This document shows, piece by piece, positions 52,489 through 58,060 of a stretch of 64,000 nt of DNA (position 1 is the stretch's first letter; the number at the start of each line of letters is the position of its first letter). Below the pieces are notes generated by a model. It was not told the origin of the DNA, did no database searches, and saw nothing but the letters and a program-made list of their open reading frames with translations. A program made the position numbers and the translations under genes. Source of the stretch: Escherichia phage FL12; sequence record PP400786. One strand, given 5' to 3'.

Positions 52489-54579
52489 TTATCCTTGAAC
52501 GAACTTGTAAGGCATGTTTGCAATATCTATGCAAGACGCAATAATTCCAAGAGATGATTCTACTTTCTGTTTAACATTTGATGAAACAAATGATGCAAAG
52601 TCAACTCTGTCTTCTATATCACCTGTCATTGTAACCAATTCACCAGTTTCCATTAAATGGTCTCCGTCATAGATTACCGATTCGGTGAGTTCTTCTGTGG
52701 TCATGACTTCAGCTTGAATGAGTTTTGTATTATTAGATGTTGTTCCGTCATTATTAGAAGCATCAGTTATTTTATTAACTTTGACCATTAATCCGCGCGG
52801 TAGAATAACTTCAGCTTCTGTTGCTATTCCGAGACTTCCTGGATATACAACATTAACTTTATGTGCGCCGTCAATTGCCCATCCTATTTGAACTTTAACG
52901 TATTCAGGATTTTCTTTATACGCTCTTATTTCGTTTGGATTAATAGTTATTCCTTCTTCATTTTTATCAACTGTCAATTCATTACGAGCTTCTGGTTCTA
53001 AAAGACCAATACCAGCATGTGTAATTCCAAAACGCCCAAAAATGATAGGAGTTAAAGAAGTAGATACAAAATTTCTGAAATAGAACACTTTATTTTTAAC
53101 TAACGCTTCATATATAGGAGCAGTCATACTTTGAGCACGATAAACTGTAATGCCTTCTGGTATACGGTCACCATTTTCAAAAGCTGAATCTAAGTTATTT
53201 ATAGCAGATTCAATTTCTTTTTCACTCATTACATCATATCGTTCTGGATTGTAACGACCTAAAAGAAGATTATTGATGTCAGTATATCCTGAACCGCAAT
53301 ATTCTCTAATGCCACGCTTTTGTGATGGAGTATATTTAGAACCATCGCGGGCAATAGTAATATCAATCATTGGACCAGCACCAATTCCAGAAAAACTGTA
53401 AATCATTCGTTTGAGGAATTTAGTTTTTGCTGCGTTCCAGGAATTTTTAGTTATTTCTTCCCAGACTTCATCTGGTTGTCCTTTACGATTTTTATTATGA
53501 TTAGCAAGCCATTTATCTTTATAATCTTCAAAGAATTGATTTACAGCTGCTGCGTATTTCTCTAAACATTTTATTGAAGTAGTTGGTTCATTTTTAATTG
53601 CATTAAAAATTACTTCTTTAATTTTTTCTGAAACTTCACCGACTTGACTCATTGGAAAGAATTTATAATCATAGTGAAGTTCATCTGCCGTTCCTTCAGC
53701 AATAATTTTTGCTGCCTTTGTTTTAGAAGCTAATGAATTAATTCCAATTTTCATTTCTTCTGCTTCGGGAATTAAAGGTGCAGTAGCTGGTTTATTAAAA
53801 TTAGCTGCTGTAGATTCATACTTCTGGAATAATTCACTTTCAAATCTAGAAGATTCCAATGACTGACTTTGTGCAATTGCTCTACGGGAAATTTTAACTT
53901 TAACAATTACGGCTTGGTCAGAACGTTTATCATTTTCTTGTGCAATAGATGCTGCAATTGCCTCATTTTTAGTTACTTGAGCTCCAGTATCTTTATTGAT
54001 ATAAACATCACCGACCTTCGATTCAACTTTAGTAAAGAGCTCGGTACTAATTTCCGGAACCCCTGGAATGTCTTCTAGTGATACATTTTTGCGATGTATA
54101 AGAATATATGCATACTTTTTATCATAATCCCAGAGTTCCTTAAGAAGGACGTATCTGCCACCTGAACGACTACGGATAAGTCTATCAGCAATAACTTGAA
54201 TTTGTCGAGCTTGACCAGCAGTTTTAGACTTAAGAATACGGAGCATACAGGCATCAATTTTATACTGACGCATTGTTTGCATTGCAACAGTAAAAACTGA
54301 ATTGATATAATTAATTGGGCTTGGACCAAGACCTTTTAATTTAGCAATTGAACCTTTAGCGGTTAATGTAAAAGGAACAATATGCATCATTTTGTCGCCC
54401 ATTTTTAAATCACGATTAGTATCACCTCCAGATGTATAGGTACATAAACGAAAGCCTGGTTGTTCAATTGCATCATCAACGTGAACTGAAAAAATTTGCG
54501 GTATTTTCTTCTTTGGATGTAAGTTTGTAATTGGAAGAGTAGTATCTTCGTCAAATAATTCTGTAATAAGTTCCATCAT
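52489..54579 (-). CDS. alt: Alt ADP-ribosyltransferase (packaged, modifies host RNA polymerase)
   Basis: 696 aa; ADP-ribosyltransferase signature R...STS...ExE (YRAQS, FVSTSL, EAEVILP); position next to gene 30. Confidence 0.9.
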   Translation of the reverse strand: MMELITELFDEDTTLPITNLHPKKKIPQIFSVHVDDAIEQPGFRLCTYTSGGDTNRDLKMGDKMMHIVPFTLTAKGSIAKLKGLGPSPINYINSVFTVAMQTMRQYKIDACMLRILKSKTAGQARQIQVIADRLIRSRSGGRYVLLKELWDYDKKYAYILIHRKNVSLEDIPGVPEISTELFTKVESKVGDVYINKDTGAQVTKNEAIAASIAQENDKRSDQAVIVKVKISRRAIAQSQSLESSRFESELFQKYESTAANFNKPATAPLIPEAEEMKIGINSLASKTKAAKIIAEGTADELHYDYKFFPMSQVGEVSEKIKEVIFNAIKNEPTTSIKCLEKYAAAVNQFFEDYKDKWLANHNKNRKGQPDEVWEEITKNSWNAAKTKFLKRMIYSFSGIGAGPMIDITIARDGSKYTPSQKRGIREYCGSGYTDINNLLLGRYNPERYDVMSEKEIESAINNLDSAFENGDRIPEGITVYRAQSMTAPIYEALVKNKVFYFRNFVSTSLTPIIFGRFGITHAGIGLLEPEARNELTVDKNEEGITINPNEIRAYKENPEYVKVQIGWAIDGAHKVNVVYPGSLGIATEAEVILPRGLMVKVNKITDASNNDGTTSNNTKLIQAEVMTTEELTESVIYDGDHLMETGELVTMTGDIEDRVDFASFVSSNVKQKVESSLGIIASCIDIANMPYKFVQG

Positions 54580-54628: not shown

Positions 54629-54817
54629 TTAGTAATCTAGTGGTAAGAGAGTACGATATATTTCAAACTTTGGTCCTTTTTCATAGGCATCAAATGTTTC
54701 TGTAAATTTATTATAAGCGTATGCATCTACAAATTCGAGAATGACTTGTGATACAGAAGTAGAAACATCTCCACCTTCTTTTTGAGCAATGACAATTGTT
54801 TCTAAGTAAGCTTTCAT
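54629..54817 (-). CDS. Hypothetical protein, 62 aa (alt.1 position)
   Basis: Small ORF overlapping the gene 30 stop. Confidence 0.55.
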   Translation of the reverse strand: MKAYLETIVIAQKEGGDVSTSVSQVILEFVDAYAYNKFTETFDAYEKGPKFEIYRTLLPLDY

Positions 54818-56277
54818 AGACCAGTTACCTCATGAAAATCGCCAAATACATCTTCGAACGTATTAGCTTTAGTTTTATCTTCACGTAAACGAATCGCAAT
54901 CGGAAGAAATAATTTAACGTAATCAGTGCGGCCATCAGATTTTAACCAACCGTTGCATTCGCACTCTAGAATTTTTCCAATATAATAATTTTGGTTTTCC
55001 ATAATGCGAGTACGGTCAAGTTCATGTGATTTTACACCGGCTTTATCTTTTAAGCCTGAGCCAGCATTTACCTTAATTTTTCCACACTCTGACTCAAGAA
55101 TAAATCCACCCGCTTTAGTAGGGTCTTTACGGTGAGGATAAATTCCTACAATTTTTAAATCAACATCAATTACTTCTTTAAATTTATAGAGATTTTTTGA
55201 ACGAGCATTTTCCCATAATCCATCGATATTTTTGAGAATAATACCTTCAAGACCTTGGTCAATATACTTTTTATAAATTACCTTAGCTTCATCTAGGTTA
55301 TTTACTATCTGGTTTTCAATTAAAATTACTTTATCATAGCCTGATGTCATTTGTTCTAGTTTAGAAAAACGTACATCATATTTTAAACGAAATGCTGGAA
55401 GACCATATATTTCTACTAATGGAACATAGTCCCAGACCTGAAACTTCATGCATTGAGCTTCTTTTTCAGAAATGGTTCCCTTTAAAGATTTATTAGCGAT
55501 TCCATTAGAAGTAGTACGTGATTCAGCTACTTCGGCGAATTCTTTGGCTTTACTAATTTCAGGATGAGCATCAAAAAGAAAATCTAGGCCTTCTGGCTCC
55601 TTTTTAACTTGCTCATGGTATACCAATTCGCCATCAATTAACACGCCTTCTGGATGAATCTTGCGGGCTTCAGCGGTCATTTTAATTAACTCTTCCTTAA
55701 GAAGATCTAATCCTAGATATTCATTACCAGCTCGTGATAAAAGACGAACATCATCTAATTCATCACCTCTGACTTCAGCAAAGCACCGAGCTCCATCAGC
55801 TTTTAACTGGGCAAAAGCTGGAAATTTGATATTCTTATTAATGCCTTTTTCATCATAAGAACTTGCCAGCATTTGAGGTTGTTCAGGAATTAAACCTGGC
55901 CAAACTTTGTTCGCAATAGATACTGATGCACCGCATTCAAGGTCTCGCATCATCACCCGACGCAAAACTTCAACATCATCTTTTTTACCATCAGTGATAT
56001 ATCCAGTTAATTCCTCAATTGCTGCATTTCCAGTCAATTTCCGAGTAGCTAACGTGAATTCAATGAAGTCAAGCATATCGGTAATAGTCAACATTCCAAA
56101 ACTCTGGGTAGCAATACCCGGTTTAGGCCATTTCTTGATATAATACTGTAACCCACGAGAATAAGTCAGACGATATACTCGTTTAAGCAATTCATTATCT
56201 TTATTCTTTTCAAGAATTGCTTGCTTCTGCTTAGTTGATCCAATAGATGCTATTTCATTCAGAATTTTAAGAATCAT
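54814..56277 (-). CDS. 30: Gene 30 ATP-dependent DNA ligase
   Basis: 487 aa; adenylation motif KADGAR; begins MILKILNEIASIGSTKQKQ. Confidence 0.97.
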   Translation of the reverse strand: MILKILNEIASIGSTKQKQAILEKNKDNELLKRVYRLTYSRGLQYYIKKWPKPGIATQSFGMLTITDMLDFIEFTLATRKLTGNAAIEELTGYITDGKKDDVEVLRRVMMRDLECGASVSIANKVWPGLIPEQPQMLASSYDEKGINKNIKFPAFAQLKADGARCFAEVRGDELDDVRLLSRAGNEYLGLDLLKEELIKMTAEARKIHPEGVLIDGELVYHEQVKKEPEGLDFLFDAHPEISKAKEFAEVAESRTTSNGIANKSLKGTISEKEAQCMKFQVWDYVPLVEIYGLPAFRLKYDVRFSKLEQMTSGYDKVILIENQIVNNLDEAKVIYKKYIDQGLEGIILKNIDGLWENARSKNLYKFKEVIDVDLKIVGIYPHRKDPTKAGGFILESECGKIKVNAGSGLKDKAGVKSHELDRTRIMENQNYYIGKILECECNGWLKSDGRTDYVKLFLPIAIRLREDKTKANTFEDVFGDFHEVTGL

Positions 56278-56543
56278 TGTTCATCCTTTAGAGTTTGGTT
56301 TACAGCTCTATTATAAATCAATTCATCATTAAGCTCAGTCAAAGACCTGTGGTACGTGGTTCTAACTTTATTTCCTTGCATCCAGTGCTTGATATAAATG
56401 AAACCTTGCTCTACACATTTTTTAAAAATTCGTTCGTCTTTTTGAGCTCGGAATTCTGGATTGCATCTAAAAAATTGATTTACGTGACCGTAATCACGTG
56501 TAGTATTACCTTCATTTTCATAAATAGTGTGAACAACAAACAT
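56274..56543 (-). CDS. Hypothetical protein (30.1 position), 89 aa
   Basis: ATG-initiated; ATGA overlap with gene 30. Confidence 0.6.
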   Translation of the reverse strand: MFVVHTIYENEGNTTRDYGHVNQFFRCNPEFRAQKDERIFKKCVEQGFIYIKHWMQGNKVRTTYHRSLTELNDELIYNRAVNQTLKDEQ

Positions 56544-56554
56544 TAGAATGCTCC

Positions 56555-57406
56555 TTAGAAAATATTATCACCACTAGTAAGTCTATTAAAATACCCTGCG
56601 TCGCCAGGCTTAATATAACTCCACGTGTGGAATGGATTCATATGATACGGGTGTGTATAATATGGATTATATGGATGTGTATAATATGGATGATATGGAT
56701 TTAATCCAGGCGTTCTCCAGGTAGTGTTCCAAGGAAAAGAATCGTTTTTAACCATCTTCTCAATTACATCTTTTATAACTTTTTCACTATCAAAACTTTC
56801 TTTATTTTCCTTTGGTGAAAAAAGCTTATTTTCTACATCATTCCATGTATAAACTCGCTGCGCAGTTTTTGGAATATTGTCACGCTCTCCTCGAGCCATC
56901 CAATAAACCGGAACATTTAATATTTCACTCGCATGATCGCAATGGTGAGCGAGATCGTCAATATAACAAATTACGTTATATTTCTCTTTTGCCTTTTTGA
57001 ACAACTCTTCTTTTGAAGAATCATGACTACACATCAGTACTTCTGAGAAGGCACCAGGAAAAAGAGCATTCAAATTAAATTGACGATTCAGCAGAGCGTC
57101 AATAGAATCACCCAGCGCTGTAACAGCTACAAAATTATAATCTTCTTTTAATTTGTTAATTACACACAGAGCATCTTTATATGGAGACAAGTAACGAATA
57201 AAATCCGAACGATTGTATTTTTCAATTAACTTGACGCCAAGTTCTTCATCACAATTAAAAAGTTTACCTGGAGAGATAAATTTCTCATCTTGGATCATTT
57301 TTAAAATATGTTCCAATGGAAGATTATATTTCTGAGCAAAATAAGGAAGGCCTGATTGCCAGCTTAAACATACTCCATCAATATCAGTTAAAATAGTAGG
57401 CTTCAT
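56555..57406 (-). CDS. HAD-like phosphatase-fold protein with Pro/Tyr/His-rich C-terminal repeat (30.2 position)
   Basis: 283 aa; N-terminal DIDGV (HAD motif I-like) and YIDD (motif IV-like); C-terminal NPYHPYYTHPYNPYYTHPYHMNPF. Confidence 0.6.
   Translation of the reverse strand: MKPTILTDIDGVCLSWQSGLPYFAQKYNLPLEHILKMIQDEKFISPGKLFNCDEELGVKLIEKYNRSDFIRYLSPYKDALCVINKLKEDYNFVAVTALGDSIDALLNRQFNLNALFPGAFSEVLMCSHDSSKEELFKKAKEKYNVICYIDDLAHHCDHASEILNVPVYWMARGERDNIPKTAQRVYTWNDVENKLFSPKENKESFDSEKVIKDVIEKMVKNDSFPWNTTWRTPGLNPYHPYYTHPYNPYYTHPYHMNPFHTWSYIKPGDAGYFNRLTSGDNIF
56641..56700 (-). repeat. Short tandem coding repeat inside the 30.2-position gene
   Basis: Plus-strand tatgatacgggtgtgtataatatggattatatggatgtgtataatatggatgatatggat shows the reiterated unit encoding the HPYYTHPY repeats. 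Confidence 0.6.
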
Positions 57407-57861
57407 AGAGAGTCTCTTAATAGGTTTAACACATCAATAAATTCAGCTTCGGTTAGTATTGTATCATCTTTTGTTAGACCACTAGCCATGCTGTGCTTCA
57501 AAACTTTTCCTTTCGAGGCTTGTAATGCATCGCGAAAGCCCTTGTTTTGGATCGCTGCTTCAAAATATGCATTTGTGTATAATTCTTTCCACGCCGGGGA
57601 GTATCTTGAAAACGGAACTCCAAGCCAGAAGAGGGTCCCACGGTCCTGAGCTCTAGCATAAGACCTTCCAGCTTGTTGAGCGGCAAGCCCGGATAACCCA
57701 AATATACGGCGTTGTTGTTCAACATTTTTCACCTTGCATCCTTGGAGGAATCCTTCGAGACCTCCAAATTGAATGCCATCCATAACGAAAGGCCATTGGG
57801 CGAAATTACTTAATGCACATGATGGCCATTTAAAATTGCTTCTTATCTCTAGCTCAGACAT
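57403..57861 (-). CDS. NADAR / YbiA-like (DUF1768) domain protein (30.3 position)
   Basis: 152 aa from ATG at 57861 (track start is TTG). Motif run LSNFAQWPFVMDGIQFGGLEGFLQGCKV matches my memory of the NADAR signature SNF..P..DG.....E...Q..K; not verified by search. Confidence 0.55.
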   Translation of the reverse strand: MSELEIRSNFKWPSCALSNFAQWPFVMDGIQFGGLEGFLQGCKVKNVEQQRRIFGLSGLAAQQAGRSYARAQDRGTLFWLGVPFSRYSPAWKELYTNAYFEAAIQNKGFRDALQASKGKVLKHSMASGLTKDDTILTEAEFIDVLNLLRDSL

Positions 57862-58060
57862 TTTCAATACTTATAATTTCAACATCAGCCCAATGACCAT
57901 AGCAAGGAAGACGAAATTCAACTGGCCAGTTAGGGTCCTTTTCTAATATAATAGACTCAACTTGTGGTTCTTCATGTTCATCAGTATATGGATTTTTATC
58001 TGTTACTTTATATGTGACCTTAATGTACTGAATTCCAAAAATCTTATTAATTATATTCAT
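57854..58060 (-). CDS. Hypothetical protein (30.4 position), 68 aa
   Basis: ATG-initiated small ORF in a tightly packed early operon. Confidence 0.5.
   Translation of the reverse strand: MNIINKIFGIQYIKVTYKVTDKNPYTDEHEEPQVESIILEKDPNWPVEFRLPCYGHWADVEIISIENV

Follow-up and report, generated by a model that had tools for sequence, protein, structure and literature searches.

The open reading frame (ORF) at 57403–57861 of the window (the whole stretch of 64,000 nucleotides that was analysed) is, with high confidence, an orthologue of adfN (T4 gene 30.3), and would encode a minimal, core-only NADAR-fold ADP-ribosylglycohydrolase that counters DarTG1 by guanine-ADP-ribose (guanine-ADPr) hydrolysis. 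The gene is an already characterised one. An earlier sequence-only reading of this DNA had guessed its nature rightly, yet no new biology follows from it. The features discussed below are collected in Table 1.

Table 1. Features of the adfN region, in window coordinates
Feature	Position	Strand	Remarks
adfN (T4 gene 30.3) CDS	57403–57861	−	152 aa + TGA stop, ATG start at 57861; phage-type NADAR DNA ADP-ribosylglycohydrolase
NADAR signature block, residues 17–44	57730–57813	−	LSNFAQWPFVMDGIQFGGLEGFLQGCKV; translation, family-profile alignment to YbiA residues 29–56
Glu36 codon GAA	57754–57756	−	catalytic; read from sequence, invariant in family
Lys43 codon AAG	57733–57735	−	catalytic; read from sequence, invariant in family
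His123 codon CAC	57493–57495	−	phage-NADAR-specific, end of last beta-strand; sequence, invariant in 66 homologues
C-terminal alpha-helix, residues 138–151	57409–57450	−	structure model; lost in RB69
Internal ORF 30.3'	57498–57725	−	75 aa, +1 frame; in T4 annotated 'internal translation within gene 30.3'
30.4	57854–58060	−	68 aa, PHROG 2042
30.2	56555–57406	−	HAD-superfamily hydrolase
30.1	56274–56543	−	DUF3045
Gene 30	54814–56277	−	ligase
alt.1	54629–54817	−	62 aa
alt	52489–54579	−	
Best sigma-70-like site	59047–59018	−	TTGACA-18-TAAAAT, upstream of 30.7
Terminator-like hairpin	59455–59434	−	
Terminator-like hairpin	54631–54612	−	

The ORF is an orthologue of T4 gene 30.3

The T4 counterpart of the ORF, gene 30.3 (NC_000866, 128307–128765), has equal length and boundaries, and its product is identical to the window protein at 150 of 152 positions (differences K11R and M125I, with Lys11 and Met125 in the window). 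The ORF called by the sequence-only reading is a real gene, found at the same place in T4. An alternative in-frame start, TTG, lies two codons upstream of the ATG, at 57867. The gp30.3 of phage AR1 is 100% identical to the window protein. A Pfam scan returned PF08010 (Phage_30_3) with an E-value of 3.5e-70 and 234.6 bits (cut-off 36) over profile positions 1–138 of 138, and PHROG 652 was matched with an E-value of 1.4e-51. The match to the gp30.3 family is far beyond chance. The NCBIfam search gave no family for gp30.3, gp30.2 or 30.3'. A 1.6-kb query around adfN matched 658 phage records with identities of up to 97%, most of them from T4-like phages of Escherichia and Shigella. The window is a genome segment of a T4-like phage (Tequatrovirus).

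The window protein belongs to the NADAR superfamily

The sequence-only reading had called the product NADAR/YbiA-like and had named the absence of a significant NADAR hit as a ground for refutation. Taken literally, that is what the direct scan gave: PF08719 (NADAR) did not match the window protein in Pfam even at E ≤ 1, and a single-sequence phmmer search against the PDB found no NADAR chain, just one spurious match (E 0.59). As both searches were negative, the case for membership is built on profile, transitive and structural evidence. A family profile built from an alignment of 66 homologues (identity down to about 35%) matched Escherichia coli YbiA (2b3w) with an E-value of 0.0072 across the SNF...E..FQ..K motif. 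In this alignment (LSNFaphEF..DG....smEGFLQslKf against FSNFAAWPIKVDGKTWPTSEHYFQAQKF), S18-N19-F20 and E36, F38, Q40 and K43 fall on F29-S-N-F and E48-H-Y-F-Q-A-Q-K55 of YbiA, and the motif string quoted in the sequence-only reading is the NADAR signature block itself. PF08719 was matched directly by 9 of the 66 PF08010 relatives (best E 1.5e-7), and several relatives are labelled YbiA (DUF1768 family) by JGI. The structural comparison that the sequence-only reading had proposed also came out in its favour, the protein having the helical core and small flanking sheets of the NADAR fold. Since these three lines of evidence agree, the missing PF08719 match was not taken as a refutation. It is a sensitivity limit arising from the split of the models, not evidence against homology, and the window protein is a real member of the NADAR superfamily (PF08719, DUF1768/COG3236). 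The split between PF08010 and PF08719 conceals this relationship from routine domain scans.

The residues that are invariant among the 66 homologues include S18, N19, F20, F25, E36, G37, F38, Q40, K43 and H123. Among them is the active-site motif SNF ... E-x-[FY]-x-Q-x-x-K with its catalytic Glu and Lys, and the E36A and K43A mutants of T4 AdfN are impaired in rescue from DarTG1 (PMC11257639/PMC11825919). The third catalytic position is His in phage NADARs, Glu in the YbiA type and Asp in the DarG1 type (PMC11125620, PMC12945103). In the window protein this position is H123, which directly follows the predicted last beta-strand (residues 120–122 of the structure model), and the protein is accordingly of the phage subfamily.

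Gene neighbourhood of adfN

The minus-strand order alt, alt.1, 30 (ligase), 30.1, 30.2, 30.3, 30.4 is the same in the window, T4 and RB69. The sequence-only reading had placed the ORF three genes from Alt; Alt is indeed a neighbour, but four ORFs lie between the two, and the count is three only if the small alt.1 is left out. At its stop, 30.4 runs 8 nt into the start of adfN (ATGTCTGA), and the 30.2 start overlaps the adfN stop (ATGA), an arrangement of stop and start codons that fits coupled translation of 30.4, 30.3 and 30.2. An 11-nt gap separates 30.1 from 30.2.

The product of 30.2 carries an N-terminal HAD motif, DxDGV, with D8 and D10 invariant. With the family profile of gp30.2 a weak match to mouse 5'(3')-deoxyribonucleotidase was obtained (E 0.035), and its structure model, confident for residues 1–200, resembles HAD hydrolases, most compactly deoxyribonucleotidases (3bwv, TM 0.71 on target length). 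By motif, profile and model, gp30.2 is a phosphatase of the HAD superfamily that resembles 5'(3')-deoxyribonucleotidases. The model is poor over the last ~80 residues (pLDDT <50 from residue 251), and the tail contains a His/Pro/Tyr-rich repeat (NPYHPYYTHPYNPYYTHPYHMNPFH) whose length differs among phages. The protein is annotated as hypothetical in most records.

The Alt protein of the window is 71% identical to T4 Alt overall, with indels. The allele is a mosaic: residues 1–247 and about 600–696 are identical or nearly so, and strong divergence is seen in the central 350 residues, to which the ADP-ribosyltransferase catalytic region belongs. This pattern suggests recombinational exchange of the catalytic module, and the target specificity of this Alt is possibly altered.

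A scan of 54.5–62 kb for promoters and terminators returned 30 and 5 sites, against 26.3 and 4.7 in shuffled sequences, that is, no excess. Terminator-like hairpins flank the block from 30.7 to alt.1. As the site counts are no higher than in the shuffles, any statement on transcription units is a guess; adfN may perhaps lie in one early unit running from 30.7 to alt.1.

Predicted anti-DarTG1 function

The function of T4 gp30.3 has been described in several studies (Nat Commun 2025 16:1598; Toxins 2024 16:208; Toxins 2026 18:82; HIDEN-SEQ preprint). The protein was renamed AdfN, for anti-DarT factor NADAR (Johannesman et al., Nat Commun 2025 16:1598; PMC11825919, earlier version PMC11257639). 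In that work, resistance to DarTG1 was mapped to gene 30.3 by phage crosses, deletion of adfN made T4 and T2 about 10^4-fold more sensitive to DarTG1, and RB69 was fully rescued by ectopic AdfN. No binding of AdfN to DarT1 was seen in a two-hybrid assay, and the purified protein stripped ADP-ribose from DarT1-modified DNA (PMC11257639/PMC11825919). AdfN is reported, for T4 gp30.3, as necessary and sufficient for T-even phages to resist DarTG1 (Nat Commun 2025 16:1598). An independent laboratory found that T4 gp30.3 hydrolyses guanosine-ADPr and not thymidine-ADPr in vitro (PMC11125620), and a 2026 study that it does not remove cytidine-ADPr and consists of the bare NADAR core (PMC12945103). 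In a T4 transposon screen all insertions in 30.3/adfN were lost, specifically on DarTG1 hosts; in hosts without DarTG1 the gene was dispensable (HIDEN-SEQ preprint). For T4 and T2, the resistance to DarTG1 during infection has deletion, complementation and transposon sequencing behind it.

On this basis, the following course of events may be proposed for the window phage. In an infected DarTG1 host, the DarT1 toxin would ADP-ribosylate guanines of the phage DNA and block replication. AdfN would then cleave the guanine-ADP-ribose bond by means of Glu36, Lys43 and His123, restoring replicable DNA, and unlike AdfA it would do so without binding the toxin. We infer that the window copy, with Lys11 and Met125, behaves like T4 AdfN in both guanine-ADPr hydrolysis and anti-DarTG1 phenotype. 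Because its adfN is intact and 99% identical to the T4 protein, the phage of the window is predicted to be resistant to DarTG1. Two points of the sequence-only reading, the reversal of guanine ADP-ribosylation in DNA by some NADAR members and a possible defence of the phage against host ADP-ribosylating toxins, agree with what has been published for the 99%-identical T4 protein, the former in vitro and the latter in the DarTG1 work. AdfN is an orphan antitoxin-like phage enzyme that undoes a bacterial immune modification of phage DNA. For the window, the assigned function bears on the prediction of host range among DarTG1-carrying E. coli and adds no biology beyond that.

The enzyme alone does not explain the specificity observed in vivo, since T4 gp30.3 leaves uninfected cells unprotected against DarT1 (PMC11125620, PMC11825919) and barely rescues T5 or Bas25 (PMC11825919). 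The T4 protein still works in T4-GT7, a phage without the DNA modifications (hmC, glucosyl), and these are thereby excluded as the reason; the authors suggested that AdfN may require a further T-even protein for its full activity (PMC11825919). Following this suggestion, we examined the structure and distribution of the product of the coupled neighbour 30.2, and found a HAD phosphatase with no specific link to AdfN. That gp30.2 or gp30.4 is the partner of AdfN during T-even infection is improbable. Both genes are present in RB69, which ectopic AdfN rescues, and gp30.2 occurs in nearly as many phage records as gp30.3 (1,452 against 1,510). However, such co-occurrence is already predicted by backbone synteny, and in the T4 transposon screen on DarTG1 hosts 30.3/adfN was the only conditionally essential gene of the region. 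With no specific tie to AdfN and a screen that highlights adfN alone, gp30.2 stays a low-probability lead.

It is very improbable that the window protein is instead a YbiA-type N-glycosidase acting on small molecules, such as riboflavin-pathway intermediates, and not on damaged DNA. COG3236 proteins of bacteria and plants do act on intermediates of that pathway. Against this reading, the residue that marks the subfamily is His123, where the YbiA family has Glu, the T4 orthologue cleaves guanine-ADPr in DNA and has a clear DarTG1 phenotype, and riboflavin damage control is not an evident need of a lytic phage.

Distribution of the family and the proximity to alt

A tblastn search with the window protein matched 1,510 phage records. 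In about 730 of them (T4-like coliphages) the identity was 80% or higher, and in 780 it was below 60%. The hosts of these phages include Klebsiella, Aeromonas, Acinetobacter and Vibrio, and a few of the phages lie outside the T4 family. Among the matches listed, the gene is annotated 'hypothetical protein' in nearly all records. PF08010/gp30.3-family genes do occur outside Straboviridae. The gene of Rhizobium phage RHph_I1_9 (Pootjesviridae; locus L003, 5001–5465) bears the annotation 'swarming motility YbiA-like protein' and has helicase, endonuclease V and RNase H genes close by; that of Ralstonia phage RSP15 (locus L005, 4995–5513) lies within a tRNA gene cluster. Neither locus has alt nearby.

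These loci bear on the idea, also put forward by the sequence-only reading, that the enzyme balances the Alt and Mod enzymes of the phage, in that AdfN would moderate or reverse ADP-ribosylation by Alt, ModA or ModB. In the window ~2.8 kb separate adfN from alt within a single block of genes on the same strand, and this arrangement is kept in Acinetobacter phage Acj61. The arrangement, however, is part of the Straboviridae backbone synteny, which includes the ligase gene, rIII and gene 31 in T4, RB69 and Acj61. We therefore rejected a functional link drawn from proximity, for which conserved backbone gene order accounts, and no alt lies within 5 kb of the family members in RHph_I1_9 and RSP15. 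The target of Alt and Mod is protein arginine. The T4 NADAR, by contrast, cleaved guanine-ADPr but neither thymidine- nor cytidine-ADPr (PMC11125620, PMC12945103), and adfN is dispensable when the host lacks DarTG1 (HIDEN-SEQ preprint). The AdfN paper makes no mention of Alt or Mod (PMC11257639/PMC11825919), and we found no direct test on arginine-ADPr proteins in the papers cited here. The balancing role is therefore unsupported rather than disproved, and we regard it as very doubtful.

Integrity of the window gene

The adfN gene of the window is intact and full-length, with its catalytic residues conserved. This matters in view of RB69, in whose gene an additional T behind codon 137 gives rise to a TGA and leaves a 137-aa product (reproduced here from the RB69 record), a C-terminal truncation tied to DarTG1 sensitivity (PMC11257639). 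The extra T is absent from the window and T4; residues 138–152 are kept and helix 138–151 is predicted. Relative to the Dhakavirus genes of WG01 and CLB_P2 (81% identical), 26 of 40 and 25 of 40 differences fall on third codon positions, an excess consistent with purifying selection on the AdfN frame. RB69 shows how a single-base frameshift can cost a phage this gene, and truncated or fused fragments exist in several deposited T4-like genomes (P0007, P0016, P0017, P0052), but it is hardly credible that the window copy is such an inactive remnant, as it has the full 152 aa with all invariant residues, its two differences from the functional T4 protein are conservative and at variable positions, and the third-position bias fits purifying selection.

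The internal ORF 30.3' was considered as a second product of the region. The frame stays open in the window, T4, WG01 and CLB_P2, and in RB69 a stop interrupts it. Over the same nucleotides its translation is 63% identical to those of the Dhakavirus copies, compared with 84–86% for the AdfN frame, and the substitutions sit on third codon positions of AdfN. We saw no sign of selection on 30.3', which evolves like an unconstrained frame and is probably not a conserved protein.

Comparison with known systems

The closest relative of known function is T4 AdfN, which shares with the window protein 99% identity, length, position, the overlaps with 30.4 and 30.2, E36/K43/H123 and the C-terminal helix, and differs in having Arg11 and Ile125. 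The flanking genes are more diverged from T4, and no deposited phage exceeds 97% identity over the 1.6-kb region.

DarG1-type antitoxins (BC4488 family; the NADAR of Geobacter/Trichlorobacter lovleyi, 8BAT, and DarG1 of E. coli C7) are linked to a DarT, whereas AdfN is an orphan: no DarT-like gene was found near adfN, all flanking genes being T4 backbone genes. DarG1 has an N-terminal helix and sheets that form a positively charged channel, while AdfN is the core domain alone (PMC12945103), and the catalytic Asp of DarG1 is replaced by His in AdfN. Nor can T4 AdfN take over the antitoxin role of DarG1 in uninfected cells (PMC11125620, PMC11825919). With no adjacent DarT1, His in place of Asp and this failure of the T4 protein, we rejected the window protein as a DarG1 antitoxin; AdfN acts as a DarG1 does without being one.

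Of the more distant NADARs, E. coli YbiA (PDB 2B3W; YbiA family, COG3236) has Glu where AdfN has His, and its gene is cellular and part of an operon under LexA control (PMC11125620). YbiA-type enzymes also remove cytidine-ADPr, which the T4 NADAR does not (PMC12945103). The NADAR of Phytophthora nicotianae (PDB 8BAU, ADP-ribose complex) is eukaryotic, 18% identical and longer (189 aa, compared with 152 aa), and its third catalytic position has Glu-type chemistry.

Among phage factors, AdfA (gp61.2), NADAR-Bas32, NADAR-Bas60 and AdfM all counter DarTG, as does AdfN. AdfA, unlike AdfN, binds DarT1 and does not repair DNA (PMC11257639). AdfM (Tk.4) is a macrodomain directed against DarTG2, which modifies thymidine (HIDEN-SEQ preprint). 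NADAR-Bas32 and NADAR-Bas60 share the chemistry of AdfN but belong to other NADAR branches, and they work outside their own phage (PMC11257639).
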